Made by a program: the position numbers and the translations under genes
The notes under the pieces: generated by a model
The model's database searches: none
What the model saw: the letters and a program-made list of their open reading frames with translations, nothing else
Told to the model about the DNA's origin: nothing
DNA from: Calditrichia bacterium
GTDB taxonomy: Bacteria > Calditrichota > Calditrichia > JAJRVZ01
DNA length: 64,000 nt
Assembly (NCBI GenBank): GCA_963777955.1
Contig: CAVZSQ010000019.1
Span: 96,001-160,000 of the forward strand
Direction: 5' to 3'
In this document: positions 9,043-63,851 of the stretch, piece by piece
How positions within the stretch are numbered: the stretch's first letter is position 1
Layout: every line of letters starts with the position of its first letter

Positions 9043-9509
9043 TTTTTCGATGTAGCCAGATAAAATTCAATCTTCAGCCAGATTTCAGGCAGCAAACTGT
9101 CCTTTAGAAATATTAGCCATGTGTTAAAGTATTATCGCAGGTAATTATAGAGACGTCCTTTAAGAAATCACCCGACAGTCCGGAAAATGAAAGACTGACC
9201 CTGGAACAATATTATCAGAACATTTCGCTGGACGAAGTTGAATATCTTCACTTTGTTCCAGGTTTAAATCCGCCCACGGTTTATTTCAGGATAATCTTCG
9301 AAGGCGGCGAAGCAAAATTCGAACGTGACATCGACGACTGGAACTTCATCGAATCAAAACTAACCTGGATTGAATAGACAGCCTGTCCCGACCTGCCTGA
9401 AATATCTTTTCATTTTACTTGCTTGCAAATCCGATATTGCATAGGATATAATTATTATAATTTTTTGACCATTTTTGGATAGGTCGAATTAGCAAAAAGG
9501 ATATTTAGA

Positions 9510-10475: not shown

Positions 10476-10479
10476 AATT

Positions 10480-11695
10480 CTAAAACGATGCTGTTATGAT
10501 GGCCCGGGCGGCGAAATCATCCGGATCAGGATCCAAATTCTTAATCTGTTGATCCATATAACTTAACTTAAACAGGATATTCCTGCTGATTTTGTAACCA
10601 ATTGCCACACTGTAGCGCGTGACATTGTGATCCCATGGATTCATAAGTACTACCGGGCTGGCGGGCGGATGGCCGAATTTTTCGAAATTTAAAATATCAT
10701 AACTGACCGCCAGATAACTGCCGGTAATAAAAGGTGGCTCATATTTAAGATCAAGATAAGCACCATAGTTTTTCAATTCAAATTCGGCCAGATTTCCGGA
10801 TGATTCCAGCACATACTGCAGCTGAGTATAGGCAGGTACATTCCAGATGGAATAAGCAATTTCGCCGGATAATTCGAAATACGAATAGCCAATGACCAGG
10901 TCGGTACCAAATATCTTTTGATTAAACCTCTCCAGATTACTCCAACCTTGATTGTAAAGACTTTTCTGCATGAAACTACCGTATCCTGCTGAAATGCCCT
11001 GCTGCCAGAAGATCAGCGGTTGAAAACTGAACCTGCCGACCAGTCCAAAATTAGCCAGATTGGTATATTCGGCAGGCGAAGCCAAAGCCCCGTTGGTCAT
11101 TGCTATATCCAGGTTCATGATGTCCGGAATCAGGGACAGGCTGATCATACCGCCTGTACTATATCCTCCTAAATAAACCGTTGTTATACCCACATCGTCC
11201 GTACCATAGACACCCGTATTCCCTGCCAGGGGCCACAGACCGTGGGTTTCGGAAATGTTGATAAAATATCCGTACAGCAGAGGTGCCTGGCCAAAAAGAT
11301 TATCTGCAGCCAGTTGCCGGCGCGGATAAAGCCCGAACGGCATCATAAACCTGCCAATACTGAACGAGAAAGGTGAATTTGCAGCGGACCAATTAAGGAA
11401 GGCCAGGCTCAACCGCGTTTTGCCCAGCAGGCCGCTACCCCAGGTGTCCCATTGCAGACGGGCATTAAAGGAAAATTGCTGATCAATCTGTGCGAAAGCG
11501 AATATATTAAACTGAGCAATGGCCAAGTGCGCATTGCGAAAATCAGCAGCTAATTCATTGCCGACAAAACGTGAATCACGGCCTCCCTGAGCCACTTCGA
11601 AATCAACACTTCCGTTCCAGAGCAGTCTGAGCTTGCGTTACACCGGAAATTACCAGCATCATCATTACGGCCGAAATTATTATTTTAATTTTCAC
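10480..11695 (-). CDS. Outer-membrane beta-barrel (porin-like) protein (frameshift ~11620)
   Basis: Upstream GTG frame gives signal peptide MKIKIIISAVMMMLVISGVTQA|Q overlapping the cyclase stop; IGRFMMPFG motif, amphipathic strands, C-terminal Phe. Confidence 0.75.
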
Positions 11696-46458: not shown

Positions 46459-47830
46459 ATGATTAATCCGCATATTTTTCGTGAATACGATATTCGCGGC
46501 GTGGTAGACCGTGATTTGAACGATGAAGTGGTCTACCAATTAGCACAGGGATTCGGTACCTACCTGCGGCAGCAGCAATTAAAAAAAATCTCGCTGGGCG
46601 GTGATGTCCGCCTTTCCACGGAACGGTTTCGCGGCATACTGATCAAAGGATTCAGGCAGGTCGGCATCGATGTGATCGACATCGGTATCGTGCCGACTCC
46701 GGTGCAGTATTACAGTATGTATAATTTGCCGGTTGACGGCGGCCTGATGATCACCGGCAGCCATAATCCGGCAGAATATAATGGTTTTAAATTGACGGTT
46801 CAGAATGCTCCTGTTTACGGGGCTGAAATTCAGAAAATTAAACTGATTATCGAGGCGGGAAAATTTGCCTCCGGCCAGGGCACAGTCGAAAAGACAAATC
46901 TGATCCCGGCCTATATCGAGCATATAAAAAAAGATATAAAGATAAAAAAGAAACTAAAAGTCGTACTGGACTCGGGGAATGGTGCCGCGGCTCTGGTGGC
47001 CCACCGCTTATTCAAAGAACTGGGAGTGGAAACTGTTGACCTGTTCGACACACCTGACGGCCGTTTCCCCAATCATCACCCTGATCCGACTGTGCTGGAA
47101 TACCTGCATGACTTGATCGAATCCGTTCGAGCAGACCCACGCCGATCTGGGCATCGCTTATGACGGTGACGGCGACCGTCTGGGAGTTATCGATGAACAC
47201 AGCCAGGTGATCTGGGGCGACCGCCTGTTGATCATTTTTAGCCGCGATATTATCCGGCGTCAGCCCGGAGCAAAAGTTATCTTTGAAGTAAAATGCTCGC
47301 AGGCCTTGCCGGAAATGATTGAAAAATTTGGGGGTCAACCAATCATGTGGAAAACCGGTCATTCCCTGCTGAAGAAAAAAATGAAAGAGACCGGAGCACC
47401 CCTGGCCGGGGAGATGAGCGGACATTTATTTTTTGCCGACCGTTATTATGGTTATGATGATGCTATTTATGCGTCAGCCCGACTGGTAGAGTTGCTCTCC
47501 CATGGTTCCAATCCATTATCCGCCCTGCTCTCGGATGTTCCGCAATATTTTTCGACTCCGGAAATCAGGGTGGACACGGTCAATGATGAAGAGAAATTCA
47601 AAATAGCGCAACAGGCCAGGGATTATTTTTCAACCCGCTATGAGGTTATTGCTATAGATGGAGTACGCATTCTGTTTGGCGATGGCTGGGGACTGGTACG
47701 GGCTTCCAATACGCAGCCGGTACTGGTTTTACGGTTTGAAGCAAGGTCAGCTCAACGCCTGGAAGAGATTAAAAATATGGTCATATCCAAACTAAAAGAA
47801 TTTGGCAAAATAGAGATCAAGAAGTCATGA
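46459..47830 (+). CDS. Phosphomannomutase/phosphoglucomutase (frameshift ~47130)
   Basis: FREYDIRG, TGSHNP, YDGDGDR (shifted frame), GEMSGH, RASNTQP. Confidence 0.93.
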
Positions 47831-49730: not shown

Positions 49731-50576
49731 CTAATTCAAATCTATATACCCATTAATATGCTTACTCTTATCGATAATGTGATTATCCGCGTCAACGACA
49801 GCACCATGACAGTTATTGCAACTTGCTTCGACATCGATGTGCCCCATCGGCGGCAGTAAATGGCAACTACCGCAGACCGCCTGACCTGATCCGGCTTGTG
49901 TCCAGTCCATTTCCTGATTATTGCCCAGCATAGCATCGGTTTCATAGAAATCCGGATTGGCACTGGCTGATTTTCTAAAGATAAAATTCCCATGACAATA
50001 GGTATTACTGCAGGATGCCGTAGCATGATCCCAGCGCGGGGATATCTTGCCCTGCCAGCTGGCCATTCCGCCAAATTGTACGTTAATCCCTTCCTGTTTA
50101 TCAATATGATCAGGATCATCAAAACCGGTGAGTGTGGATGACACAGATCACAAGTTCCGGGTGTAGGCTGTGCTCCAGGTATCGCCGCTGAGGTGAATCT
50201 GATGTGCACCCACACCGATTGCCGTTGTAACCGTATCCCCCATCAAATCCTGCGGAGGAGCCCAGGAAGTGAGGGCCAAAACCGAGGCATTACTATTACC
50301 GTGACAGAGGTTGCATGCTTCCATGCCAGCCGTTTCGCTGTGACAGGCATAACAGGAAGCACCGCTGGAACCACCCCGGTAATCGCTGCCATGGCAGGTG
50401 ATACAGGATTCATAGCCGGCGGCCTTGACTTTATTGCCATGGAATTCCGCTGAACTGAGCGTATTCCAGTCCGCCGGATGAGTGACACTGGGGGGGGGTG
50501 TTATTTCTTCGGTACAGGACCAGATCAGTACCACTAAGAAAAGACTGGCAAAAATAATTAATGCTTTCACAGTCAA
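49731..50576 (-). CDS. Lipoprotein multiheme cytochrome c, 7 motifs including CxxxxCH
   Basis: IWSC lipobox; CITCH, CYACH, CNLCH, CDLCH (restored by two compensating indels at ~50140-50152), CSNTYCH, CGSCH, CNNCH. Confidence 0.85.
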
Positions 50577-50669
50577 ACCTCGCTTATATAATTTAATGAT
50601 TTTGAATTATTTTCAAAAAAATTCAAAAGATAACCTCACAAACTTTGATTGCGATCTTTATCATTCTGC

Positions 50670-52583
50670 TCAGTTTGTTTTTGTATAAGCCGTATATTCT
50701 TCCGGATGATGATGCCGGAGATCTTCCTCGCTGATTTTACCGTCCAGCCAGGTCAGGTTCATGGGATATTTTTCCGGATGATAAATTACAAAGAACCAGT
50801 GCCAGATAAATATAGCCAGGGTGGCCAGCCAGGCTTCGAAATAATGGATAACTTCGGATGTTTCAAACATCCAGGTCGGCAGATAGTTCATAAAAAATTC
50901 AGGAAACCATAATACCAGACCGGTGAAGGCCATCACCGCAGTACCCCAGATCAAAGCCAGATATTCTGCTTTTTCGGTATAATCCCAGCGGCCGAAGCGG
51001 GGACGGTGCTCAGAGAAACCCAGATAATATTTCATATTCTGCCAGAATCCGGTAACATCGGAAATTTGCGGACGTAAGGCCGATATTTCCTTTCTGCCCT
51101 GGCGATGAAATAAGAAATAAACCAGTTGAATCAGCGATATACTTATCAGTATAACCGCGCCGATCCGGTGCAGTACTGAGCGCAGAGACTCGGTCATTCC
51201 GGCAGAAACCAGTAAACGTACCCAACCGGCATCAGGAAATTTTAGGGCAAAACCTGTTATCACCAGAATAAAAAAACTGAAGATCAGTAAAAAATGCTGG
51301 TACACTTCAAAAGAGCGAAAACGCTGGTATAAACGGTCCTGTTTGCGGGCCTGCCGTTTTTTACGTATATAACTTACCAGGATAATCAGGTTATGCAGAA
51401 CCATGCTGCCGACAATGACAATAATCAGCCACATATAGACGGTTCGTGCATAAAAAGTTACCGGATTACGTTCGGCCAGATTCTTGGGATGTACAGCAAT
51501 ACTGCTGAATTCCTGGCTGATGTTATCATGACACTTGCTGCAGGTTTTTTTCAGATTAGCCGGATTCACACTCGACTCAACCGAGGATTGCTCGCGGATC
51601 GCATGGGTCTCATGGCAACTGGTGCAGTTGGCGGCATCGACAGATCCTTTTAATATAGCCAGACCGTGATAGGTCCGGTTATAGGAAGCGAAGCGCTCGG
51701 CATCTAATCCGAAGCGCGCCATCATTGCCGGCGAAGAATGACATTTGGCGCAGATCTGCGAGGATAAATTCAGACGGTTGGTAATCGCGTCAATTTCCTG
51801 AGGCGACTGAATTTTATGTTCCCCGTGGCAATCATTGCAGGTGGGCGATTCAAAATGACCGCGTTGTACGGCCCGCCAGTGGATACTCTGCAAATATTCC
51901 GCCTTCACCTGCTGATGACAATGACCGCAGGTTTCGCTGCGGTTTAATTTGTTAAAACTGGAGCGCGGATCGGACATTATATAAATGGCGTGAGAACCAT
52001 GACAGTTGGTACAAGTGGGTGCGCCGCGGGCTGGATCTTCGCGCAGGATCCTGGCATGCACACTCTGCTGATAACCGGCCACCGGTCCATCCCCCTGGTA
52101 ACCCAGATATTCAATTACCCGCGGATCCAGATGGCATTTACCGCAGGTAACAGCCATGTTCAGGGGATAGATTGTGGATGCAGAATCAGCAGCCGGCAGC
52201 ATATAATGACTGCCGTGGCAATCCTTGCACTGGGCCGGAGATATATTTTTTCCCCCTGCCGAAGTAGCATGGATACTCCCGGCATATACTTGTTGTACAT
52301 CCTCATGACAACTGCTGCAGTTGACCGGGGGTAATTCCGATTCATGTTCGGGACTCTTGACAGTACTGTGGCAATCCACACAATTGAATCCGCCATGAAT
52401 CGATTTTTCGTATTTGCCCTGATCTACATATAAGGAGATTTCGGTACTATCATCGATACTTTTAGACAGACCCGAGTCGGCATGACATTGTAAACAATCT
52501 TCAACTGATTGGCCGTAGACAAATGCCGTTGAGAATAATCCGCAAATAAATATGAACCGCTTGATTTTTAACCTCCTAATCAT
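50670..52583 (-). CDS. cbcL: CbcL-like protein: periplasmic 11-heme cytochrome c fused to an FdnI/HydC-type cytochrome b
   Basis: 11 CxxCH motifs, then TM domain with QH..LVITGF, LHRIGA, EKAEYLALIWG..TGLVLWFP, IHYFEAWLA..IWH. Symbol denotes homology, not proven orthology. Confidence 0.85.
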   Translation of the reverse strand: MIRRLKIKRFIFICGLFSTAFVYGQSVEDCLQCHADSGLSKSIDDSTEISLYVDQGKYEKSIHGGFNCVDCHSTVKSPEHESELPPVNCSSCHEDVQQVYAGSIHATSAGGKNISPAQCKDCHGSHYMLPAADSASTIYPLNMAVTCGKCHLDPRVIEYLGYQGDGPVAGYQQSVHARILREDPARGAPTCTNCHGSHAIYIMSDPRSSFNKLNRSETCGHCHQQVKAEYLQSIHWRAVQRGHFESPTCNDCHGEHKIQSPQEIDAITNRLNLSSQICAKCHSSPAMMARFGLDAERFASYNRTYHGLAILKGSVDAANCTSCHETHAIREQSSVESSVNPANLKKTCSKCHDNISQEFSSIAVHPKNLAERNPVTFYARTVYMWLIIVIVGSMVLHNLIILVSYIRKKRQARKQDRLYQRFRSFEVYQHFLLIFSFFILVITGFALKFPDAGWVRLLVSAGMTESLRSVLHRIGAVILISISLIQLVYFLFHRQGRKEISALRPQISDVTGFWQNMKYYLGFSEHRPRFGRWDYTEKAEYLALIWGTAVMAFTGLVLWFPEFFMNYLPTWMFETSEVIHYFEAWLATLAIFIWHWFFVIYHPEKYPMNLTWLDGKISEEDLRHHHPEEYTAYTKTN

Positions 52584-53478
52584 CAACACTGTGCTGGTGG
52601 CATTCAATACAGACATTGCGGGCATAGGCATCGTTATGACAACTCAGACAATAATCCAGATCCCCTTCAGCCTGACGTTTGTGCAATCCGCCATTCCGGG
52701 GATTGGTCCAATTGGCATAGGCATGATTGCGCGGCATGACCATTTCACGCTGATGACACTCAATACAGAATGCGCCTTCCTGATGACAGGTAAGGCAATT
52801 ATCCTTATTGGTCCGGACATCGATTCCATGATTATTTTTATAATTCAGCGGATGAGTCAAGCGGTCCAGATTATCCCCTTCATGACAATCGGTACAGTAG
52901 GAATTCTGATGACAGTGTACACAAGCTTCTTTATTCAGCTGTGCGGTCGGTCCATGATCCTTATTCCAGCCGGTACGGTGATCCGCAGGTTTAAACGGAT
53001 GGTCCTGTTCATGGCAGACCAGGCACTTTGCCTTATCTTCATTATAATCCATACTGCCATGACATTCGCGGCATTTATTTTCGGCAGGAATTTGTCCGAC
53101 GCCGGCCGGGGATTCCCGCAATTCAATCCCGGCATGACAGACCTTACAATCCTGATCCGATTTAACATGTAGCTGGTGAGCAAATTTCGCCCGCAACTGG
53201 ACTATCCGCGGTACCTCTTGTGCCGCGTCCGGATCAGTATGACACACCTTGCATTCGGTATCTTTTTCATCGTGGCAATTGTAGCAGGTCTGCATCGCAG
53301 GCAGCAGATTGTCCTGGGGTGATTGACTGGCGGATACCGGCTGATGACAATCGGCACATTTGGCGCCGGCTTGCTGCAGGTGGAATTTATGCGAAAAGAT
53401 CAGATCTGCTTGCTGGGAAAAACCCGATAAGATCCAGCAGGCCAAACAAACTATAACGAGAATTAGCAGTCTTTTCAT
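52576..53478 (-). CDS. Periplasmic 12-heme cytochrome c (c3/c7-like)
   Basis: Signal peptide MKRLLILV..GFS|Q; FSHKFH; 12 CxxCH motifs in ~300 aa. Confidence 0.92.
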   Translation of the reverse strand: MKRLLILVIVCLACWILSGFSQQADLIFSHKFHLQQAGAKCADCHQPVSASQSPQDNLLPAMQTCYNCHDEKDTECKVCHTDPDAAQEVPRIVQLRAKFAHQLHVKSDQDCKVCHAGIELRESPAGVGQIPAENKCRECHGSMDYNEDKAKCLVCHEQDHPFKPADHRTGWNKDHGPTAQLNKEACVHCHQNSYCTDCHEGDNLDRLTHPLNYKNNHGIDVRTNKDNCLTCHQEGAFCIECHQREMVMPRNHAYANWTNPRNGGLHKRQAEGDLDYCLSCHNDAYARNVCIECHQHSVDD

Positions 53479-53497
53479 AGTGGTACACCTTCTCATT

Positions 53498-54688
53498 TTA
53501 CCAGATAAAATGAATATGATTTAAAAGACGATTATCGGAGTCCGCAAAGCGGTTATTCAACCACTGGTACTCCAGATCTGCCTTCCAGTGTTTGGTGAAG
53601 TTGTAATGCAACCGGACCGTGTTGGCTAACTGGTTTTCATATTCATAGATTTCTTCAAAACGGTAGCGGGTATAGTTCACACCAACCGAAGCAATCAGGT
53701 TCTTCCAGATTTCATAGCCATAATCGAACATCACCCCGACCTGATCGCCAAGGTCTCCGGTCTCATAAAGCAGATTGATCGCGCCGCGATTGTCATTAAC
53801 TCCCAGCATCAAACGCTGTCCCGAGGCCTCTTCCAGAGAGATATACTGGACTCCGGCCGATAAACCATAGTCGGCGGTCAAAGCATAATTCGTATTCAGA
53901 CCGGCCTGGGTATATGGTTCGATCTCAAAGATTTTGAAATAAGAATCGGCATAAATTTGTGGAGTCTGTTGTTTGGCAAAAACACTGACAGCCAGCTTAT
54001 TGGAGGGGGCGTACCTGGCCGAGGCATACAGACGATGCAGGGTCGAGTTCAAAATATCATAATGTGTCTGCAGGATGAATTGGATCTTTTTAAGTGAATA
54101 ATTATTCAGATTCAAACCCACAATCTGCCATTGGTTCTCATTTTCCCTTAACCTCTGCAGGTAAGCCAGCTGCACATTAGTGTTGTAAAAATGACGATAG
54201 GTCAACGCTGAACCATAAACCGTGGCAGCATCGAATTCGTATACTTTCATTTCACGGAACAGATTGGATTCCACGCCGCCGAAGATCTGCCAGCTGAGAT
54301 CGGCCACTGGTTTCAGGGTCAGGTTTACACCATCCAGGCTACCAAAGGGAATTCCGGCATGCAGGAACTGTCGGCCGATTTCGAAATCCAGCAAATTATC
54401 AAAAAGATTACTGGCTGAGACCGACATCCGGTAAGCCCGCCAGGGCAGCTGACCCGGTTGCGGCTGGCTCAGCCAGCGCATGGAAACATTCAGGTTCAGA
54501 TTGTTCCAATTTTCGGCCAGGGCAGAGAAACGCAGGAATTGATAAACATTGAGAGCCGACTTTGATCCTTCCTGTTCATAGACGTACAGGGAGGAAGTAT
54601 AGCGGCCGCTCGTTTCAATGGTTTGCGCTGTAATACTATGAATACAGAGCAACGTGGCGATGAGTGAAATCAGATAATTTTTCTTCAT
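53498..54688 (-). CDS. Outer-membrane beta-barrel of a putative porin-cytochrome conduit
   Basis: Signal peptide ITA|Q, IGRQF..LDG motif, amphipathic strands, C-terminal Trp; first gene of the cytochrome operon. Confidence 0.8.
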   Translation of the reverse strand: MKKNYLISLIATLLCIHSITAQTIETSGRYTSSLYVYEQEGSKSALNVYQFLRFSALAENWNNLNLNVSMRWLSQPQPGQLPWRAYRMSVSASNLFDNLLDFEIGRQFLHAGIPFGSLDGVNLTLKPVADLSWQIFGGVESNLFREMKVYEFDAATVYGSALTYRHFYNTNVQLAYLQRLRENENQWQIVGLNLNNYSLKKIQFILQTHYDILNSTLHRLYASARYAPSNKLAVSVFAKQQTPQIYADSYFKIFEIEPYTQAGLNTNYALTADYGLSAGVQYISLEEASGQRLMLGVNDNRGAINLLYETGDLGDQVGVMFDYGYEIWKNLIASVGVNYTRYRFEEIYEYENQLANTVRLHYNFTKHWKADLEYQWLNNRFADSDNRLLNHIHFIW

Positions 54689-54744
54689 AGGCAAAACCTA
54701 TTGTTAATTAAAGTTATTGAGGCATTTAAAACTCTCTATAAAAC

Positions 54745-54760
54745 GTCAAATATCATGCCA
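54745..54760 (-). promoter_or_regulatory. sigma54 promoter (GA variant at -12) of the porin-cytochrome operon
   Basis: TGGCATGATATTTGAC = GG-N10-GA, ~55 bp upstream of the porin start. Confidence 0.6.
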
Positions 54761-54913
54761 AATTATAGTTTTTAATCGGTTTATTATAATCACGACTTTT
54801 AGCCGGAATTCGGTAATAAACCGGGCCAATTGAACTAAATTTATTAAAACTTAACAAATTATCGAATATTTATTTGTTTTAACTGGAATCACTTTTACAT
54901 GTTAGAAAAAATA

Positions 54914-54952
54914 TGAGACATGAAAGCGACACTGTGAGAATTTCAGGTCTCA
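54914..54952. promoter_or_regulatory. Putative enhancer (bEBP upstream activating sequence)
   Basis: TGAGACATGAAAGCGACA matches 57441-57458 at 15/18 nt; TGAGAC..GTCTCA inverted pair. Confidence 0.5.
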
Positions 54953-55031
54953 AAATAAAACAGCCGAGATAGATAGGGAAATAAAATCGTTCGTATTGAT
55001 GTGATATTAAATCAGAATTTGAGTATTAAAT

Positions 55032-55079
55032 AAAAAAAAGACCTTCCGGAATAATTCTCCCCCAGCTCCGGAAGGTCTT
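55032..55079 (-). terminator. Rho-independent terminator after the 9-heme lipoprotein gene
   Basis: AAGACCTTCCGGA...TCCGGAAGGTCTT stem followed on the minus strand by a T-run. Confidence 0.85.
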
Positions 55080-55111
55080 CGATCAGAGTATAATATATTT
55101 ATACTCTTTTC

Positions 55112-56824
55112 TTACCAGTTACTGGCTACAGCTTTCCGATCCGAAGTCAGAATGGCAGCACCGGGAACTTTATTATCCATCAAATGCAAATAACTCTGCT
55201 GTAATAATTGTACAGCATAATCGGGATTATGAACACCATGACTGCCGTCCTCCTCGACGAATATTAAATTCCATCCTGCTTCCCGCTGGATGTAGGTGGA
55301 ATTGTTCGTATCGCCCAGAGCCTCAGCCAAGGATATACCGCCGGTAGTGTCCAGGCCGGTAGTGATCAAGGCATCTTCCAGCATAGTCATCAAGCCGGCA
55401 ACTTCGTCCTGAACCCCTTCTACCTGGTTATCGCCATCAAAATCTTCCAGGGCCATAATATCTTTAAACGATGATATAGTACCATGGCAATTGGAGCATG
55501 CTAACACAGTGGGTTCAAAGGTATGACCGGTCTTGGCCGGTTCCGTTTCGCTCACATATTCAACCCGGTTTAAATGGCAGGTTTTGCAACTATTCTGGAC
55601 ATACAGATGGGAAGGTTGTGCCCAGACAAAATCTTCCGCGGCAACAGCCTGGTAGCCGGTTTTGGCAGCCATCATATCCCCCTGCACGCTGCCATGAGGT
55701 CCAAAGTTAGACCGGCCAATGGCAATTTGCGATTCGCCTCCGCGACGGGCATGGTGACATTGCATACAAAGTTTGCCGACACCACCGTCAGTGATCAATG
55801 GAGATTCGCCATTAGCAGTCACCAGCTGAACATCAGCAATGGTCCGTAGCTGCGCCGGATTAGTTGCGTCGTGGGAATCATGACAGGTAGTGCAGCCCAT
55901 CGATTGAAAAGGCGCCACGGTAGTATCCGGTCTGGCGCTTACCGCCCCGCTGCCATAGAATGTACTCAGATCTCCGGATAAACGAACACCCGCGGCAACC
56001 CCTTCATGACAACCCTGGCAAGATACCGCATCGGCTTCGGCCATAGAACTATGAGCAGATTCCTCCCATTCCGAATAATAAGGATGGTGGGTGCCTTCAT
56101 GACATTTCGCACAATTCTCAGCCGACCAGTCAACAGTGTTACCGCCGCCGGTAAGGTGACCTGAAGCGGCACCGTGGCAGTTTTCGCACTGGACGTTTTC
56201 GAACTTGGCAATCGGTGCTTCGTCATAGCCGCTGTTACCCAAAGGTCCCTCATACCCCACGGCATGGCAGGGATTGCAGTAGGAAGCCGGATGACCGCTG
56301 CCCTGCAGAGTTGCCCAGGCACCGGCATGACCGGTTTCAGACCAATCGTTATATTCACTGGAATGGCAACCCGAACAGGCTGAGGAACCCACGTAATAAG
56401 GCGTCTGGTATGGTGCATACATCCCGACACCCATAGTACGCAGACCCAGACCTATAAGTTGTCCCCCGACCACATGTACACTCACTTCATAAGCCCCGGC
56501 GTCATCCGGTGCTTTCCAGACAACTGTATCCCCAGTGGCACTGTTAAAAGTACCGCCGGTGGCGAACCAGTTATAAACCAGCGTTCCAACCTGATATCCG
56601 GTTGGAATCGTGATGTCTGCGGTAAATGTTACTTTACCCCCCTGGGCTACAGAATCATTGCCGCTGACATTAATGATCTCGACTGCGATCGTATCGTGGA
56701 CGACTTTCTCGACTTCCACGATCTTCTCTTTTTCCGATTCGCAGGATGCCAGCAACATCAATCCCAGCAAGGCTACCGGAACGATCAGCGCCAGTAATTT
56801 GTGCATAATAGAGTTTTTATGCAT
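55112..56824 (-). CDS. Lipoprotein multiheme cytochrome c, 9 hemes, with N-terminal Ig-like domain (OmcB-like C-terminus)
   Basis: LASC lipobox; CSGCH, CNPCH, CENCH, CAKCH, CQGCH, CTTCH, CMQCH, CKTCH, CSNCH; DGSHGVHNPDY tail. Confidence 0.9.
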   Translation of the reverse strand: MHKNSIMHKLLALIVPVALLGLMLLASCESEKEKIVEVEKVVHDTIAVEIINVSGNDSVAQGGKVTFTADITIPTGYQVGTLVYNWFATGGTFNSATGDTVVWKAPDDAGAYEVSVHVVGGQLIGLGLRTMGVGMYAPYQTPYYVGSSACSGCHSSEYNDWSETGHAGAWATLQGSGHPASYCNPCHAVGYEGPLGNSGYDEAPIAKFENVQCENCHGAASGHLTGGGNTVDWSAENCAKCHEGTHHPYYSEWEESAHSSMAEADAVSCQGCHEGVAAGVRLSGDLSTFYGSGAVSARPDTTVAPFQSMGCTTCHDSHDATNPAQLRTIADVQLVTANGESPLITDGGVGKLCMQCHHARRGGESQIAIGRSNFGPHGSVQGDMMAAKTGYQAVAAEDFVWAQPSHLYVQNSCKTCHLNRVEYVSETEPAKTGHTFEPTVLACSNCHGTISSFKDIMALEDFDGDNQVEGVQDEVAGLMTMLEDALITTGLDTTGGISLAEALGDTNNSTYIQREAGWNLIFVEEDGSHGVHNPDYAVQLLQQSYLHLMDNKVPGAAILTSDRKAVASNW

Positions 56825-56866
56825 TCATTCACCCCCATTGTTAAAAGATTAGTCATTTGTTCCTGT

Positions 56867-57251
56867 TTAATAAATTCTTTTTGCAATCAATTCAATTACT
56901 GAGTTTAGCGAATCGGTCAGCTCCGATTCTGCTATAGGTTTAATAGCATAATATTGAATTCCCAGCTGACTGATCTCTTTACCCAGACTCTATGCCGGTA
57001 TCCGACGTGGCGAAAAAAATATCCACATGCTGGTTAATCTTACGGACCGAACGCAGAATATGTGCTGAATAAGGGCTCAGAAAATCGTCATCAACAATGA
57101 TCAGAGAAGGATTCTGGGCACAGATGGTCGACATGACATCCAGTGGATCTGCAGATCCATCGTAAATCATCAGAGCATTTTTTTGCCTGGGAATTGCGTT
57201 CCCGACCATCTGATTAAGATTTTGATCCCTGGATATTAACATTATTTTCAT
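56867..57251 (-). CDS. Stand-alone atypical receiver-domain protein (frameshifts ~56950-56990)
   Basis: MKIMLISRD, PSLIIVDDD; shifted frame YAIKPIAESELTDSL. Confidence 0.7.
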
Positions 57252-57264
57252 TGCAGGCATCCTG

Positions 57265-57280
57265 TGCAATTGATATGCCA
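57265..57280 (-). promoter_or_regulatory. sigma54 promoter of the receiver + 9-heme cytochrome transcript
   Basis: TGGCATATCAATTGCA, canonical GG-N10-GC. Confidence 0.8.
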
Positions 57281-57371
57281 AATACTCTGAAAAATACCCT
57301 TATAAATTAAAAATTATGTGTAATATTATATAAATATGTATAATATTTACTAATATTGTATATGATATAAT

Positions 57372-57458
57372 AGGGACAATGGAGCACACTGGCCATTAAT
57401 GTCCCTGATCAGTTCTTAAAGTGAGCGTACCTTGTCGCAGTGGGACATGAATGTGACA
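57372..57458. promoter_or_regulatory. Putative enhancer sites (bEBP UAS)
   Basis: AGGGACA..TGTCCCT inverted pair; TGTCGCA..TGTGACA; TGGGACATGAATGTGACA matching 54914. Confidence 0.5.
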
Positions 57459-57503
57459 AATCCCTTATTTAATCTTACCAGCTTTTTGCTTATATTTGTC
57501 ATT

Positions 57504-58979
57504 ATGTTCAGGACCATCAACAGTAAATTTATTTTCTTCACTATCATCTTTATCATGCTAAGTGTTGGTCTGCCCACTACTTTTTTGATCCGCCAGTTCA
57601 GGGCTAATTTTGAACAACGTACCAGCGCCTTGCTGGAAACCACCATGGAAGTGGTTCATGGCGACGTAGTCAACGTAATGTTGAAATATGATCACAAAAG
57701 GGTTCAGGACATTATCGATAAAATAATGCGCTATAAAATCATCCGGCATCTGCGTTTTTTCGATACGGTGGGCAATATACGATTTGCTACCGATACCACC
57801 GAGATCGGTAGAAACATCGATGATGTAGATAAGGGACACGTCCAGATCGGCGAAATAGATCACAAGGTTATCCTGTTACTGGAAAATAAAAAAGTATACA
57901 CCTCCACCCGTGCTATTGTAAATCTGCCGGAGTGTCAATCCTGTCACGGGATTAATCCGGTCATAGGTTATCTGGATATCGATGTTAATCTGACCCGGGC
58001 CGAGAGATATTTTTATACCGGCTCATTTCATATCATCTTTCTGGCTATCGCTATAGTGCTGTTGTTATTTTTCGGATTTTATTACCTGTTCAACCGCTTC
58101 ATCAGAAAACCGCTGGACCGTTTAACCCTGGCGCTTAACCAGGTGGATGAGGGACAGCTGGATACCCGCCTGCCGGCAAAAAAAGCAGATGAAATCGGCA
58201 TTCTGGAACGACAGTTCAACACCATGGTTTCCAACCTGCAGGCTTCCCAGCAGAAGATCGAAGAACTGCACTTCGAACAACTGCAGCGGGCGGATAAACT
58301 GGTAACCCTGGGTGAATTGGCCGCCGAAATGGCTCATGAGATCAACAACCCTGCCGGTATTGTCATGTCCCGCGCTGATTATCTGCACATCAAGGCTGAT
58401 GAGAATTTGGCCTTAAAAAAATACCAGGATGACCTGCAGGTGATCATCAATCAGGTCAATAAAATATCGCGGATTACCGGTAATATTTTAAAGTACAGCA
58501 AAAAATTACCCAAGCAATTTCATACTGTGGATTTAAAGCAGGTTCTTGAAGAAAGTCTCAATGTACTGGAACCGCGCCTGGCTATGAAAAAAATTGATCT
58601 GCACAAAGAATTCAAAGATAATGATTGTCAGATTTCAGGCGATGCCCAGCAACTGGAACAGGTTTTTACCAATTTGATCAACAATGCCGTTGACGCGATG
58701 TCCCAGGGCGGATTTTTAACCTTAAGCCTGGAGCGCAATGAACAGCATCAAATTCAAATTAAAATCAGCGACAGCGGTAGCGGTATCAGTGCGGATCTGC
58801 TGGACCAGATCTTTACTCCATTCTATACCACCAAGCCCCCCGATAAAGGTACGGGTCTGGGACTGTATATTGTCAAAAATATCTGCAAAAACCATAATGC
58901 CGATATTCATTGTACCAGTTCACCCGGCCTGGGGACTACTTTTACGGTAACTTTCAGAGGGAATGATTTGAAAAAATGA
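57504..58979 (+). CDS. Sensor histidine kinase with periplasmic CxxCH motif and HAMP domain
   Basis: CQSCH between two TM helices; AHEINNP H-box, NLINNA, FTPFYTTK, GTGLGL. Confidence 0.93.
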   Translation: MFRTINSKFIFFTIIFIMLSVGLPTTFLIRQFRANFEQRTSALLETTMEVVHGDVVNVMLKYDHKRVQDIIDKIMRYKIIRHLRFFDTVGNIRFATDTTEIGRNIDDVDKGHVQIGEIDHKVILLLENKKVYTSTRAIVNLPECQSCHGINPVIGYLDIDVNLTRAERYFYTGSFHIIFLAIAIVLLLFFGFYYLFNRFIRKPLDRLTLALNQVDEGQLDTRLPAKKADEIGILERQFNTMVSNLQASQQKIEELHFEQLQRADKLVTLGELAAEMAHEINNPAGIVMSRADYLHIKADENLALKKYQDDLQVIINQVNKISRITGNILKYSKKLPKQFHTVDLKQVLEESLNVLEPRLAMKKIDLHKEFKDNDCQISGDAQQLEQVFTNLINNAVDAMSQGGFLTLSLERNEQHQIQIKISDSGSGISADLLDQIFTPFYTTKPPDKGTGLGLYIVKNICKNHNADIHCTSSPGLGTTFTVTFRGNDLKK

Positions 58980-60346
58980 AAAAGATCTTGATCGTTGACG
59001 ACGAAGAAGATATGCTGCAAAGTTTACGCAAAATTTTATTGCAGCGGCAGTCCTACCAGGTAACGACCATAAAGGACAGCAGGCAGGCTTTACAACTGGC
59101 CGGTCATGAAAAATTTGATCTGATTATAACCGATTTCAAAATGGGCGATATTTCCGGAATCGATATATTAAAAGCGGCCTCCGGTAAATTTCCCGATGCC
59201 AAGGTGATCATGATCTCCGGGTACGGCACAATCGAAGCCAGCGTGCAGGCGATGCAGGAAGGCGCCTTCGATTTTATCGAAAAACCATTTACCTCTAAAA
59301 AATTATTCGCCTGCATTGACCGCGTATTCGGACCGCAGCTTGAAGCAAAAACCTTCGGCAGTGATGCCGGGGGGAAGGTGGTCGAACTGCCGGGTATTAT
59401 CTTTAAAAGCAAACAGATGTCCGAGATAATAACTCTGGTCGGCAAAATTTCTTCCGGAGATTTAAATATACTGCTTACCGGTGAAAGCGGCACCGGCAAG
59501 GAATTAATAGCACGGGCAATCCATAATCTGAGCAAGCGCAGTATCCATCCCTTCGTGCCGGTGAACTGCGGTGCCCTGCCGGAGAATCTGTTTGAAAGTG
59601 AATTATTCGGCCACGAGAAAGGGGCTTTTACCGGTGCCATCAAGACCAAACCGGGATTGCTGGAATTTGCCAACCAGGGTACTTTTTTCTTTGACGAGAT
59701 CGGCGATCTCAGTTTGACCCTGCAGGTAAAACTATTACGCATGCTGGAACAACGCCAGATCCGGCGGGTCGGCGGCCAGAAAGAAATTGATATTGATGTA
59801 AGGATTATTGCCGCCACCAATAAGCAACTGGCCGAAGCCGTCAAAGAAAACAAATTTCGTGAAGATCTGTATTATCGTCTGAATACCATGCAGATCGAGA
59901 TTCCACCCTTGCGCGAACGGACTGATGATATTCTGCCGCTGGCCAATAATTTTCTCGCCGAGTTATGCCGCAAGAATGAAAAAATCGTTACCCGCTACTC
60001 CTCCGAAGCGGAAGAATCCCTCAAATTATATAACTGGCCGGGAAATGTCCGGGAGTTGCAGAATATGATAAGCCGGGCTTATTTTCTCACCTCCTCCCGG
60101 GTAATTCAAAAAGCAGATTTACCGCTGCCGGTCAGCGAGAAAACTTTTTATATCGATCAGCAGATGTTTGATCTATCCTATAAGCAGGCCAAAGATGCGG
60201 TCCTGGAAAAATTTGAAATCGAATATCTGACCGGCCAGTTGCGTAAATATAAAGGTAATATTTCCATAACTGCTGCCAAATGCGGAATTGACCGGCGTTC
60301 GATTCATCGCTTAATTAAAAAATACAACATTATGTATAAAGACTAG
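58976..60346 (+). CDS. sigma54-dependent (NtrC-family) response regulator
   Basis: Receiver domain, GESGTGKE, GAFTGA, WPGNVREL, Fis-type HTH. Confidence 0.95.
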   Translation: MKKILIVDDEEDMLQSLRKILLQRQSYQVTTIKDSRQALQLAGHEKFDLIITDFKMGDISGIDILKAASGKFPDAKVIMISGYGTIEASVQAMQEGAFDFIEKPFTSKKLFACIDRVFGPQLEAKTFGSDAGGKVVELPGIIFKSKQMSEIITLVGKISSGDLNILLTGESGTGKELIARAIHNLSKRSIHPFVPVNCGALPENLFESELFGHEKGAFTGAIKTKPGLLEFANQGTFFFDEIGDLSLTLQVKLLRMLEQRQIRRVGGQKEIDIDVRIIAATNKQLAEAVKENKFREDLYYRLNTMQIEIPPLRERTDDILPLANNFLAELCRKNEKIVTRYSSEAEESLKLYNWPGNVRELQNMISRAYFLTSSRVIQKADLPLPVSEKTFYIDQQMFDLSYKQAKDAVLEKFEIEYLTGQLRKYKGNISITAAKCGIDRRSIHRLIKKYNIMYKD

Positions 60347-60356
60347 GGGGTGGATT

Positions 60357-61865
60357 ATGAAACTTAAGATTCCTGCTTCCATGCGAAATTGGATTTCATT
60401 AATCGGCACTATGATTGCGCTGATCTGCTTTTTTATGATCGTTTTCCTCTTCTTTATCACCATGATCCTGGGTCAGGGCGGCTCTTATATCGGCCTGGTA
60501 ATTTATGTGCTGTTACCGGCGGTGATGATTATGGGATTATTGTTAGTCCCCATAGGTATGTATTTCCAGCTGCACCGTCGAAAAAAATCGGGACAAATTC
60601 AGGAGCTGACCTGGCCGCGGCTAGATTTAAATGACTTGAAACAACGCCGCTTCTTCTTCAACTTTGCCATTGTAACTACTATTTTTCTGTTTATCTCGGC
60701 TGTAGGCAGTTATGAAGCTTTTCATTTTACCGAGTCGGTCCCCTTCTGCGGTACCATTTGTCATGAAGTCATGAAACCCGAATATACGGCGTACCAGCAT
60801 TCGGCCCATGCCCGCGTGGCTTGCGTCGACTGCCATGTAGGTGAAGGAGCAAACTGGTACATGCGGTCGAAATTATCCGGATTGTACCAGATTTACGCCG
60901 TGACCACCAACATCTTCCCCCGGCCCATTCCGACTCCGGTTAAAAACCTGCGCCCGGCCCGCGAAACCTGCGAACGCTGCCACTGGCCGCAGAAGTTTTA
61001 TGCCCAGAAATTCAGGGCCGAACGGCATTACCTGAATGACGAGCAGAATACCGAATGGGATTATCAGCTGATTATGAAAATCGGTGCAGAATATTCAGCC
61101 CTCGGACTGGTCGAAGGTATTCACTGGCATATCAATCCCGATGTGAAGATCGAATACCTGGCCAATAATGAAAAAAATCTGGAGATACCGTGGGTACGCT
61201 ATACCGATCAAAAAAATAACCGGGTGATCACTTATCTTAACGAAGAAAATCCCATCGATCCCGACACGGTCAAAAACCAAAACATACGCACCATGGATTG
61301 CATGGATTGTCATAACCGGCCATCGCACAGTTACAAACCGCCTGCATTTTTCGTCAATGAGGCGCTGACTTCCGGTTTAATTCCCAAAGAATTACCCCAG
61401 ATCAAATCACTGAGTATGCAGATCTGTGCCATTGAGTTCAATCAGACCGATTCCGCCCGGCAGTACATTCAAAAATCTGTCAGCGAGTTCTACCAGAGTA
61501 ATTATCCGCAAATTTATCAGGAGAAAATGCAGCTGGTTGAGAAAGCCTGGACTGGCTTACAGGAAGCGTATCTGCAAAACATCTTTCCGGAAATGAAAGT
61601 GCGCTGGAATGCTTATCCCAACCATATCGGACATGTAGAATTTCAGGGATGTTTCCGCTGCCATGATGATAAACATAAAAGCTCTGACGGGTATACAATC
61701 GCCAAGGACTGCAATCAGTGTCATCATATCATTGCCCAGGGTAGTCCCGGCCAGATGTCTATTTCAACTCTGGATAAACCCCTGGAGTTTAAGCATCCGG
61801 TTGATGTGGGCGATGCCTGGCGGGAAGGATACTGTACCGATTGTCATACAGGCTTAAATCCCTGA
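60357..61865 (+). CDS. imcH: ImcH-like NapC/NirT-family inner-membrane 7-heme cytochrome c
   Basis: Three N-terminal TM helices; CGTICH, CVDCH, CERCH, CMDCH, CFRCH, CNQCH, CTDCH; NLRPARETCE and GIHWH motifs. Symbol denotes homology. Confidence 0.85.
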   Translation: MKLKIPASMRNWISLIGTMIALICFFMIVFLFFITMILGQGGSYIGLVIYVLLPAVMIMGLLLVPIGMYFQLHRRKKSGQIQELTWPRLDLNDLKQRRFFFNFAIVTTIFLFISAVGSYEAFHFTESVPFCGTICHEVMKPEYTAYQHSAHARVACVDCHVGEGANWYMRSKLSGLYQIYAVTTNIFPRPIPTPVKNLRPARETCERCHWPQKFYAQKFRAERHYLNDEQNTEWDYQLIMKIGAEYSALGLVEGIHWHINPDVKIEYLANNEKNLEIPWVRYTDQKNNRVITYLNEENPIDPDTVKNQNIRTMDCMDCHNRPSHSYKPPAFFVNEALTSGLIPKELPQIKSLSMQICAIEFNQTDSARQYIQKSVSEFYQSNYPQIYQEKMQLVEKAWTGLQEAYLQNIFPEMKVRWNAYPNHIGHVEFQGCFRCHDDKHKSSDGYTIAKDCNQCHHIIAQGSPGQMSISTLDKPLEFKHPVDVGDAWREGYCTDCHTGLNP

Positions 61866-61975: not shown

Positions 61976-62500
61976 TCATCGCAAATTAATTTGGTCTGAA
62001 CAGACGGTACAAAAACTATCCCCTTTCACATCCAGATCGTCGACCGTATTGGAACTGGCCATGACGCATTTATAATTATGACAATGGCGCAGATTCTGTA
62101 AATGGCCATATTCATGAATGGTTTCTTTGACTAAGCGCCCGATCAGTTTATGTTCATCGGCCGGCAATCCGTAAAATTCATTGATCAACCGGCAACTGGA
62201 TACGATTGCCGCGCTGCCCCCCAGACCGGCCAGACCGAAGACAAAGGTCAAAACGGGGATATATAAATCCAGGCTGGTATAGATTATGACTTTATTTTGC
62301 TGTGTGGAAGGTCTGCTGACCTTTTTAATAATTTTTATCGCATCGTATTGTTCCCGGTTCTGATCGTAACAATCCTGAACCGTTAGTTCCGTATCGTAGC
62401 GGGCAGCTATTAAACCGCTGCGCTCACACAGCAGGGAGATCAGATTATCGAGCAGATTATTATGATTGAATTGGACGGTAATAATTTCGAGTTCAGGCAT
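61976..62500 (-). CDS. Archaemetzincin (peptidase M54) zinc metalloprotease
   Basis: DLYIPVLTFVFG, HEYGHLQNLRHC, CVM Met-turn, FCTVC. Confidence 0.9.
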   Translation of the reverse strand: MPELEIITVQFNHNNLLDNLISLLCERSGLIAARYDTELTVQDCYDQNREQYDAIKIIKKVSRPSTQQNKVIIYTSLDLYIPVLTFVFGLAGLGGSAAIVSSCRLINEFYGLPADEHKLIGRLVKETIHEYGHLQNLRHCHNYKCVMASSNTVDDLDVKGDSFCTVCSDQINLR

Positions 62501-63851
62501 TTTCCGGGCGTTTTATTCCGTACTTCTGCAATTTTTTATAGATGGTAACCCGATCTATGTCCAGTACTCGGGCAGCATTAGAAATATTCCAGTTATTTTT
62601 TTCCAGTACACTGATAATATGCGCTTTTTCAACATCGTCCAGTGACAGGGTGGTTTTAAACGAAGTCTGCAATTCAACATGGTTAAGCAGGAAATCTGCG
62701 CCGTTCAGAACATCGTCCTGTGTTACCACCATAGCCCTTTCGATGGCGTTTTCCAGTTCCCGCACATTCCCTTTCCAGGGATATTTCATCAGCATTTGCA
62801 AAGCAGCAGGGGCAATGCCTTCCACCGCTTTGTTCATTTTGGCGCGGTAATGGGCGATAAAATGCTCAACTAATTCAGGAATGTCTTCCGGCCGCTCACG
62901 TAAAGGTTTAATGTTGATCGTATACACCTGTAAGCGGTAATACAGATCTTCGCGGAATTTTCCATCCTTCACGAATTCTTCCAGATTGGTATTGGTAGCC
63001 GAAATCACCCTGAAATCCGATTGAATGATTTCATTGCCGCCCAGACGGGTGAATTCCCTGGTTTCGATTGCCCGCAGCAAATCCACCTGCGTTTTGGGTC
63101 CGATAGTACCGATCTCATCCAGGAATAAAGTTCCGCCGTTGGCAATTTCTAGTTTCCCTTTGCGCCGGTACATAGCCCCGGTAAAGGCTCCTTTTTCATG
63201 TCCGAATAATTCACTCTCCAGCAGGGTTTCGGTCATCGCCCCGCAATTAACCGTAACGATGGGAAAGAAACGTCGATCGCTCTGGGCATGAATGGCCTGG
63301 GCTACCAGTTCTTTGCCGGTGCCGCTTTCGCCGCGGATCATCACCGTTGTCGAAGTCTTAGCCACGGTTTCGATCAGTTTCTTGACCTCGGCAATATAAC
63401 GGCTTTTGCCGATTATCTCCGGCGGCCGGGTCAACTCTTCCAGACTTCCTTTCAAACCGATGTTCTCAATGGTCAGGCGCCGCTGTTTTTCCGCATTACG
63501 GACCAGATGACTTAAACTATCGGGATCGAACGGCTTGGTGATATAATCAAAAGCCCCTTCTTTTAAAGCCTGTACGGCAGTATCTACCGCTGCGTAGGCC
63601 GTGATCATGATTACCACGGCATCTTTGTCAATTTCTCTGATGCGCCGGTGCAATTCCATGCCATCCATTCCCGGCATTTTAATATCGATAAAATAAATAT
63701 CCCAGCGGGTCGTACTCATTTTGTTCAGGGCTTCTACCGCATCCCGCGCTGTATCGACCTGATAACCATCTTCCGTAAACCAGCCGGACAATGACTCGCG
63801 GACGATTTCTTCATCATCCACTATCAGTATTTTTACATCATTCTTAGCCAT
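62493..63851 (-). CDS. sigma54-dependent (NtrC/AtoC-family) response regulator
   Basis: Receiver DIKMPGMDG, GESGTGKE, GAFTGA, WKGNVREL, Fis HTH. Confidence 0.95.
   Translation of the reverse strand: MAKNDVKILIVDDEEIVRESLSGWFTEDGYQVDTARDAVEALNKMSTTRWDIYFIDIKMPGMDGMELHRRIREIDKDAVVIMITAYAAVDTAVQALKEGAFDYITKPFDPDSLSHLVRNAEKQRRLTIENIGLKGSLEELTRPPEIIGKSRYIAEVKKLIETVAKTSTTVMIRGESGTGKELVAQAIHAQSDRRFFPIVTVNCGAMTETLLESELFGHEKGAFTGAMYRRKGKLEIANGGTLFLDEIGTIGPKTQVDLLRAIETREFTRLGGNEIIQSDFRVISATNTNLEEFVKDGKFREDLYYRLQVYTINIKPLRERPEDIPELVEHFIAHYRAKMNKAVEGIAPAALQMLMKYPWKGNVRELENAIERAMVVTQDDVLNGADFLLNHVELQTSFKTTLSLDDVEKAHIISVLEKNNWNISNAARVLDIDRVTIYKKLQKYGIKRPENA

Follow-up and report, generated by a model that had tools for sequence, protein, structure and literature searches.

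A 64,000-nucleotide (nt) stretch of contig CAVZSQ010000019.1, from a Calditrichia bacterium (assembly GCA_963777955.1), raises the question of whether the Calditrichota, so far read as fermenters and nitrate reducers, can pass respiratory electrons across their outer membrane (OM). This stretch, referred to below as the window, contains a gene set of 12 kb that specifies an OM barrel, multihaem c-type cytochromes and a sensor kinase with its activator. A preliminary description, made from the sequence, regarded the set as a self-contained island for extracellular electron transfer (EET) in a lineage not known for it. Our analysis suggests that the genes encode a porin-cytochrome (Pcc) pathway of the Geobacter/Ignavibacterium type, by which respiratory electrons are exported outward, and we put the probability of this reading at roughly 55%.

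Every gene listed in that description was recovered at its position in the open reading frame (ORF) list of the window. Genes A, B, C, D, F and E lie on the minus strand, and G, H and I on the plus strand, in the opposite direction. D and C specify the barrel and a secreted 12-haem cytochrome, B and I putative inner-membrane cytochromes, A and E lipoprotein cytochromes, and F, G and H putative regulatory proteins.

Published Pcc systems have barrels of 18-22 predicted strands and cytochromes with 5-14 haems, and their OM lipoprotein often carries a CX3-15CH motif (PMC4245776; PMC numbers throughout refer to excerpts of the papers concerned). The pcc cluster of Ignavibacterium album, for example, encodes a periplasmic cytochrome of 14 haems and 400 amino acids (aa), IALB_1838, and an OM cytochrome with an atypical motif, IALB_1837 (PMC4245776). 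Closer to the present genome, an EET system resembling pcc has been reported in a Caldithrix metagenome-assembled genome (MAG), together with a pcc-porin homologue accompanied by cytochromes in Caldithrix abyssi (PMC6137239), and one CbcL and one ImcH homologue are listed for Calditrichaeota (PMC6295460). These reports, with the I. album cluster, take away the novelty that had been claimed for the lineage. Single-locus conduits with an inner-membrane partner are likewise in print, namely mtoABCD and the mtrH clusters (PMC6295460). The conduit discussed here appears to be of the Pcc type, and systems of such kind are already recognised in related bacteria.

The barrel-cytochrome pair

The core of the gene set is formed by two adjacent genes:

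Gene D, 53498..54694 (minus): 398 aa, no haem motif; modelled as a plug-less 22-strand OM beta-barrel; likely start ATG at 54688
Gene C, 52576..53496 (minus): 306 aa, 12 CxxCH motifs, secreted; starts 2 nt past the end of D

D has neither a Pfam match at E 0.01, the MtrB_PioB profile included, nor an NCBIfam match. In its AlphaFold2 (AF2) model, built from 41 homologues (mean pLDDT 88.6), a signal helix leads into 22 strands joined by short loops, and a plug is absent; the protein ends in ...HFIW. A strand number of 22 lies within the published Pcc range (PMC4245776). In a structural search, the best matches were the 22-strand barrels of TonB-dependent transporters minus their plugs, with FyuA at the top (Z 19.5, 334 residues aligned, root-mean-square deviation (rmsd) 4.4). 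MtrB (6r2q_B) was aligned over 325 residues with a Z of 15.9 and an rmsd of 6.3, and Foldseek against the PDB returned generic barrels only, at query-normalised TM-scores of 0.30-0.55. A 22-strand lumen that has no plug of its own must be filled by something.

The product of gene C is a candidate for that role. Its 12 haems fall within the range of 5-14 given for the secreted cytochrome encoded next to a Pcc barrel (PMC4245776). Nineteen relatives of C, of about 284-306 aa and with a Sec signal, carry 10-12 motifs (12 in eight, 11 in ten and 10 in one), and a stretch reading EGDNLDRxTHPLNY is nearly invariant in their alignment. The D-C complex was predicted in three runs from our own alignments (of 42 rows for D and 19 for C) alongside three controls. 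The prediction passes, with ipSAE values of 0.68, 0.67 and 0.65 against 0.00 for the best control, a partner pLDDT of 70 and a contact agreement between runs of at least 75%. In the calibration of the tool, the mark applied was attained for 116 of 157 solved complexes and for 2 of 215 mismatched pairs, counts that are only roughly valid here because our own alignments were used. In the model, contact residues come from all round the barrel (35 to 391, on nearly all strands) and ring residues 167-243 of C; the tightest contacts involve C residues 216-225, inside the nearly invariant stretch, at THPLNY.

C is thus predicted to be threaded through D as a sheathed wire. By analogy with MtrA, the N-terminal part of C, with six haems, would project into the periplasm, and its last two haems would come out at the cell surface. 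We consider it probable that D and C form a trans-OM conduit at all, whatever the direction in which it is used. The preliminary description had proposed that the barrel, the 12-haem cytochrome and the lipoproteins make up a porin-cytochrome conduit, and had suggested complex modelling as a check; the plug-less 22-strand model, the passing prediction for the barrel and 12-haem pair, and the strict adjacency of the two genes in relatives support it.

Conservation of the module

A profile search located the barrel family in 61 of 86 Calditrichota genomes, in 40 of the 53 that are of high quality, and in 38 of 55 genera. Gene order was then compared in 20-kb stretches on long contigs from 20 of the 60 other positive genomes, covering seven of eight families (individual loci are numbered L032, L033 and so on):

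D followed immediately by C: 20/20 loci
CxxxxCH domain of A downstream: 18/20; L035 and L036 have only a partial N-terminal-like match
E homologue (at least 53% identity) upstream of the barrel: 7/20, directly in six and about 3.4 kb away in L033
Kinase G: 8/20
Kinase followed by activator: 7/20
ImcH-like gene inside the stretch: 7/20

CbcL-like genes occur in most of these 20 loci at variable positions, and prs and suhB flank the cluster in 3/3 loci of the same family, as they do in the window. The GC content of the cluster (0.45-0.49) lies inside the range of the window (0.36-0.52), so composition gives no sign of an island. Judged by these comparisons, the locus is a core, vertically inherited module with variable accessories. 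The term "island" is therefore at odds with the distribution of the barrel family across the phylum and with the constant prs/suhB neighbours; the conservation in related MAGs that the same description had suggested looking for is present, in the form of the D-C adjacency.

In some relatives an extra pair of genes, absent from the window, lies between E and the barrel. It consists of a haem-free lipoprotein (about 250-345 aa) and a 10-haem cytochrome of about 370-390 aa with nine CxxCH and one atypical motif, and a further -24/-12 element, TGG(C/T)AC-N5-TTGC, precedes it in L033, L035 and L036. The pair was located as follows:

L033, 10957-13432
L034, 11091-13244
L035, 10732-13194
L036, 10684-13224
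L032, 7035-8920

The family also extends beyond the phylum. Against 1.84 billion representatives, the barrel profile retrieved 858 proteins at E<=1e-3, of which 187 reach E<=1e-30, and the family includes a protein named by its source as Caldithrix abyssi. Among 20 barrel clusters looked up, four contained named organisms: Ignavibacteriaceae, Ignavibacteria, Zixibacteria and Marinimicrobia. Thirteen metagenome loci were found around an Ignavibacteriaceae member, and all five of those examined in detail (Ignavibacteria-like contigs) encode, in this order, a 4-haem cytochrome, the barrel (423 aa), a 14-haem cytochrome of about 410 aa and a lipoprotein with CxxxxCH motifs, preceded in two of the five by 16- and 19-haem CbcL-like genes. 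By description, this gene set matches the I. album pcc cluster, with the 14-haem cytochrome resembling IALB_1838 and the lipoprotein with its atypical motif resembling IALB_1837 (PMC4245776). An atlas listing, taken as a lead only, has a similar barrel cluster commonest in Thermodesulfobacteriota.

Putative inner-membrane cytochromes

Two genes are candidates for the link to the quinone pool:

Gene B, 50670..52631 (minus): 653 aa; fusion of an 11-haem cytochrome c with a membrane cytochrome b; likely start ATG at 52583
Gene I, 60357..61865 (plus): ImcH-type seven-haem cytochrome, 502 aa, 11 nt downstream of H

The CbcL/MtrH/MtoC family is defined in print by an N-terminal multihaem c domain with 3-23 CX2CH motifs, joined to a HydC/FdnI-like b domain (PMC6295460). 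B carries 11 CxxCH between residues 46 and 368, and its residues 438-620 match PF01292 Ni_hydr_CYTB (E 1e-12). It also matches TIGR01583, the formate dehydrogenase gamma family (E 4.9e-14), and FdnI (1kqf_C, E 2.2e-6, residues 437-649); searched alone against solved structures, the cytochrome b part gave no match, though the whole of B matches FdnI. By its sequence, B falls under the printed structural definition of the family (PMC6295460), with five hydrophobic helices in a crude hydropathy scan versus about six in that definition.

ImcH is described as having three N-terminal helices, a CX3CH beside the membrane domain, six CX2CH, about 495-519 aa and a NapC/NirT-like region (PMC6295460). 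In I, a crude Kyte-Doolittle scan gives hydrophobic helices at residues 20-38, 50-68 and 99-117, the CX3CH motif is CGTICH at residue 131, and six CxxCH are present. Residues 101-185 match PF03264 NapC/NirT (E 8.5e-10); 2j7a_C is matched at E 1.1e-4, and the NrfH family TIGR03153 at E 2e-15, below the family cut-off. Every structural feature printed for ImcH (PMC6295460) can thus be read from the sequence of I. The two proteins answer to the inner-membrane quinol oxidoreductases of the preliminary description, I under the ImcH and B under the CbcL/MtrH/MtoC definition.

I appears to belong to an unusually conserved family: all 8000 of 8000 scored candidates pass E<=1e-20 in its family search. 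Among the matches listed, I is 61-64% identical to homologues named Calditrichia, Melioribacteraceae, Acidobacteriota and Bacteroidota, a homologue named Melioribacteraceae being 62% identical. Melioribacter roseus is cited as an ImcH holder (PMC6295460).

Putative outer lipoprotein cytochromes

Two lipoprotein genes are candidates for the outer end of the pathway:

Gene A, 49731..50576 (minus): lipoprotein multihaem cytochrome with a CxxxxCH/CxxCH domain; broken in the assembly
Gene E, 55112..56824 (minus): 570 aa nine-haem lipoprotein; N-terminal beta-sandwich and OcwA/MccA/NrfA-like haem domain
Intrinsic terminator after E, 55030..55075 (minus): long GC-rich hairpin, then a T run

The C-terminal half of A matches TIGR01904 (53.1 bits, cut-off 27) and PF09698 (33.6 bits, cut-off 21.7); its MtrC-like domain matches stay below the cut-off (16.4 bits vs 30). 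With a lipobox cysteine, a CxxxxCH motif and the TIGR01904 match, A corresponds to the lipoprotein of published Pcc clusters (PMC4245776), in a gene that is broken in the assembly. An in-frame TGA at 50148-50150 interrupts A inside a frame-shifted stretch of about 22 nt, a +1/-1 indel pair with one base surplus near 50157 and one base short near 50134/50135. In an alignment, the homologous ORFs of 16/16 relatives have a CxxCH exactly at the break point, where the window encodes CDLCH in the +1 frame. Public contigs 95-99% alike, from the low-depth runs X1 and X2, have one more base at 50134/50135; the X2 contig is in addition one base shorter at 50157. In close relatives A reads as a continuous gene with seven haem sites. 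The seven-haem CxxxxCH lipoprotein first described therefore holds for the relatives, but in the window the gene is broken and has six motifs in frame. F has a second break, and two of them inside 8 kb, in an assembly of 27 contigs, point to indel errors. Selenocysteine at the TGA was considered and rejected, because relatives have CxxCH there and the window encodes it in the +1 frame.

The best solved relative of E is OcwA (6i5b_A, E 4.5e-15, in five short, patchy stretches), followed by MccA (4rkm, E 2.5e-7). E also matches PF13435, and its residues 400-547 match PF02335, the NrfA family. It contains nine CxxCH, without a CxxCK or a long atypical motif. Its AF2 model, from a seven-row alignment, has a mean pLDDT of 38.8 and is confident only at residues about 44-133. 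OcwA itself is a demonstrated nine-haem cell-surface terminal reductase of Thermincola potens (PMC6703420). Downstream of E, a scan placed a terminator-like site at 55065-55046; by eye, the full stem reads AGACCTTCCGGA...TCCGGAAGGTCT and is followed by T8.

In A a conserved cysteine after the signal peptide is followed by acidic residues (C-T-E-E), and position +3 is D or E in 16/16 relatives. In E the lipobox cysteine is followed by E-S-E-K-E, and 7/7 relatives start C-E/K-x-E/D, with acidic residues at +2 to +4. The lipoprotein surface-export signal (LES) of Bacteroidota consists of a polar residue and then acidic ones at +2 to +6 after the cysteine (PMC5080379). The resemblance of A and E to this signal, which was defined experimentally only in Bacteroidota (PMC5080379), is a hint that both may be exposed at the surface.

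Regulatory genes and promoters

Between the two gene groups, and ahead of the barrel gene, lie the following elements:

Gene F, 56861..57251 (minus): small receiver-like protein gene upstream of E; frameshifted at a GGG run near 56985
Sigma-54-type -24/-12 promoter, 57266..57280 (minus): TGGCAT-N5-TTGC, ends 14 nt before the ATG of F
Candidate weak sigma-54 site, 54746..54760 (minus): TGGCAT-N5-TTGA, about 60 nt upstream of the barrel gene
Gene G, 57432..58979 (plus): sensor histidine kinase with one CxxCH in a periplasmic loop; HAMP, HisKA and HATPase_c domains
Gene H, 58976..60346 (plus): NtrC-type sigma-54-dependent response regulator; start overlaps the stop of G

F was absent from the preliminary list. 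Intact relatives have 127-129 aa; in the window the reading frame changes ahead of the C-terminal part (...QYYAIKP...), and the remaining 100-aa ORF has no Pfam match at E 0.01. The -24/-12 element occurs in the same place in five of the six loci with an F homologue (the window, L032, L033, L034 and L048, and not in L039). Its 14-nt spacing to the ATG implies a nearly leaderless sigma-54 message. The site ahead of the barrel, which is present in the window and in L032, lacks the GC of the -12 element and is called a sigma-54 site tentatively; the other loci have further genes ahead of the barrel.

G has hydrophobic helices at residues 8-26, 34-52 and 201-219, with CQSCH at residue 168 between them, and one CxxCH is found in the same region in 8/8 relatives. 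H comprises Response_reg, Sigma54_activat (E 1.1e-70), AAA lid and HTH_8 domains. Given their overlap or near abutment, G, H and I probably form one transcript. The haem-c kinase, the sigma-54 activator and the conserved promoter agree with the view, put forward in the preliminary description, that the locus has a regulator of its own. Between G and F (57340-57400), a possible binding site for an activator was noticed by eye: the inverted repeat GGGACA...TGTCCC, its arms separated by about 21 nt, some 90 nt upstream of the -24/-12 element.

Haem motifs and genome context

The number of haem-c motifs was first put at 47. In frame we count 46:

A: 5 CxxCH and 1 CxxxxCH
B: 11
C: 12
E: 9
Sensor kinase G: 1
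I: 6 CxxCH and 1 CxxxCH

The 47th is the CDLCH of gene A, which sits in the +1 frame and not in the main one. CxxCH motifs are far from randomly spread: in six frames, 46 of the 51 such words in the window fall within its last 16 kb. Profile searches, proposed at the outset along with a look for cytochrome c maturation genes, assigned A, B, E, G, H and I to families and left the barrel D without a Pfam or NCBIfam one. As to maturation, the genome contains CcmF-like and CcmC-like frames, and ResB, of maturation System II, has no match in this 92%-complete genome.

Across the genome, 17 ORFs contain at least three CxxCH and six contain at least eight, three of these six being in the cluster. Another contig (L067, G000:C18:46000-62000) encodes cytochromes with 20 and 25 CxxCH, in ORFs 5174-6916 and 8787-10682, with MtrC/MtrF-like domain II/IV matches of 43.4 bits (cut-off 30) and, just below it, 29.1 bits. 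They are possibly additional outer cytochromes, to judge by these matches, which makes it doubtful that the locus is "self-contained". An asparagine synthase gene lies between the two ORFs.

Directly after the cluster, the stretch 61976-63851 of the window (minus) encodes an archaemetzincin-family metalloprotease (NF033823, 152.7 bits, above the cut-off) and a second NtrC-type sigma-54 response regulator with no kinase adjoining. At 46459-47830 (plus), two neighbouring ORFs (234 and 207 aa) resemble, on inspection by eye, a single phosphohexomutase split into an N- and a C-terminal half, and may reflect another frameshift in the assembly.

Comparison with known conduits

In its order of barrel, secreted multihaem cytochrome and lipoprotein with an atypical motif, the locus resembles the Pcc clusters of I. 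album and of Geobacter (OmbB-OmaB-OmcB) (PMC4245776). Compared by description with the I. album cluster, its periplasmic cytochrome is shorter, with 12 haems and 306 aa. A further difference from Pcc clusters is that, in this family, a CbcL-like gene lies inside the operon, with an OcwA-like lipoprotein, an ImcH-like protein, and a haem kinase with a sigma-54 activator alongside.

MtrCAB of Shewanella (6R2Q) and MtoAB/PioAB share with the system predicted here a multihaem cytochrome sheathed by a barrel, with a surface lipoprotein cytochrome on top. The MtrB barrel has 26 strands. Unlike MtrCAB, the system described here has 12 haems (vs 10), 22 strands, lipoproteins of other families and no MtrB_PioB match. 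The ExtABCD cluster of Geobacter sulfurreducens comprises a 12-haem periplasmic cytochrome, a barrel and two pentahaem lipoprotein cytochromes. The parts combined are alike, with lipoproteins of seven and nine haems here versus pentahaem ones there.

For the inner membrane, the nearest comparison is with ImcH and CbcL of G. sulfurreducens (PMC6295460). I is like ImcH in its three helices, CX3CH, six CX2CH and 502 aa, and B is like CbcL in joining a c domain to a HydC/FdnI-like b domain; unlike CbcL of Geobacter, B has 11 haem motifs rather than nine (PMC6295460). In Geobacter, imcH and cbcL are located away from the pcc clusters; here the same 12 kb holds both kinds of gene, and the excerpted survey reports no mtrAB or mtoAB next to imcH (PMC6295460). 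E shares with OcwA, its best solved sequence relative, nine CxxCH and an NrfA-like C-terminal region (PMC6703420). Unlike OcwA, E comes from a diderm, is a lipoprotein and has an additional beta-sandwich at its N-terminus, and the similarity is patchy.

The proposed pathway and its alternatives

In the pathway that we propose, the ImcH-like I and the CbcL-like B would take electrons from membrane quinol and hand them to the periplasmic end of the 12-haem C. The electrons would then pass along C through the plug-less barrel D to the surface lipoproteins A, of the CxxxxCH type, and E, the OcwA-like protein with nine haems. These would in turn reduce acceptors that are insoluble or lie outside the cell, for example humics, a partner cell, or oxides of Fe(III) or Mn(IV). 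The kinase G may sense the periplasmic redox state through its own c-haem and phosphorylate H, which would switch on the sigma-54 promoter of F and E and probably the weaker one before D-C-B-A.

Several points weigh against this reading. The D-C score expresses the confidence of the model itself, and since one porin-cytochrome complex, 6R2Q, has been solved, resemblance to it may account for part of the pass. If the breaks in A and F are real, this strain would be without one outer cytochrome. The surface location of A and E has a motif defined in another phylum as its one ground, and E, by the kinship of OcwA with MccA, NrfA and HAO, could be an enzyme for soluble substrates. Sigma-54 patterns are not enriched across the window (two matches vs 4.3 expected), and the promoter argument rests on conserved position for that reason. 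Finally, a literature search, with species descriptions outside its reach, found no demonstration of electroactivity in Calditrichota, and the C. abyssi genome paper makes no mention of extracellular electron transfer, ferrihydrite or iron reduction.

The same conduit might carry electrons inward, collecting them at the surface from Fe(II), a partner cell or a mineral acting like a cathode and supplying periplasmic reductases or the quinone pool, as Mto/Pio-type systems do. The direction of flow is not readable from sequence alone, homologues of the CbcL/MtrH/MtoC family are found in Fe(II) oxidisers as well as in Fe(III) reducers (PMC6295460), and Cyc2 homologues were reported in Calditrichota MAGs (PMC9769843). 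We nevertheless think inward flow unlikely: in the excerpted survey, Fe(III) reducers are the only organisms so far reported to have ImcH homologues (PMC6295460), and the locus encodes two large surface lipoprotein cytochromes, which iron-oxidising clusters of the mto type usually do without (PMC4245776, PMC6137239).

It also seems improbable that the conduit feeds E as a catalytic surface enzyme, reducing a soluble or colloidal substrate outside the OM (nitrite, hydroxylamine, sulfite, polysulfide or elemental sulfur) in a manner likened to extracellular dimethyl sulfoxide respiration by way of a porin-cytochrome. This idea draws on the matches of E to OcwA, MccA and, in its C-terminal part, the NrfA family PF02335. 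OcwA-type cytochromes, which are related to MccA, NrfA and HAO, have open-coordination haems in the case of OcwA and also reduce nitrite and hydroxylamine (PMC6703420), and Pcc clusters occur in sulfur and selenium respirers (PMC4245776). However, the haem motifs of E are all plain CxxCH, with neither the CxxCK nor a long atypical motif, and the nitrite turnover of OcwA is very low, with a kcat of 1 per min (PMC6703420). Moreover, an enzyme encoded upstream of the barrel in only 7/20 loci contrasts with a D-C pair in 20/20 and the CxxxxCH domain of A in 18/20.

Hardly credible, finally, is a purely periplasmic module in which the barrel is an ordinary porin beside cytochromes that serve periplasmic reductases: the barrel does lack a family annotation, and ordinary porins such as OprD/Occ are among its top Foldseek matches (query-normalised TM-scores of 0.30-0.55), but general porins are not built as 22-strand barrels that lack a plug and long constricting loops, the 12-haem gene directly follows the barrel in 20/20 Calditrichota loci and 5/5 Ignavibacteria-like contigs, and the D-C prediction passes against its controls.

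Implications

The value of the locus lies in its breadth across the phylum and in a compact barrel-wire pair with a passing complex prediction. We know of no solved structure of a Pcc-type conduit, and the D-C pair, with a barrel of about 375 residues, would be a convenient minimal system for structural work on such conduits. The barrel family, which counts 858 representative clusters at E<=1e-3 and is named in neither Pfam nor NCBIfam, deserves a profile. An OcwA-like lipoprotein in a diderm is of value as well; the OcwA-type nine-haem terminal reductase is known so far from a Gram-positive.

A bolder interpretation can be offered only tentatively, and with more doubt than confidence. The Calditrichota may be overlooked mineral or electrode respirers, with this capacity as an ancestral trait of the phylum. 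Their conduit would be unusually compact, with some 375 residues forming the 22-strand barrel that encloses the 12-haem wire; its terminal reductase would be of the OcwA type, anchored by lipid and exported to the surface in the manner of the Fibrobacteres-Chlorobi-Bacteroidetes (FCB) group; and a periplasmic redox-sensing c-haem kinase would switch the whole pathway through sigma-54. The proposed outward pathway can be tested directly in a cultured species, because the barrel family includes a protein named Caldithrix abyssi and, according to the excerpted report, iron reduction was never explicitly tested in Caldithrix (PMC6137239). If mineral or electrode respiration is indeed ancestral, C. 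abyssi would be an untested iron reducer. Should the proposed pathway operate, the Calditrichota would be a second phylum of the FCB group, besides the Ignavibacteria, that respires extracellular minerals.

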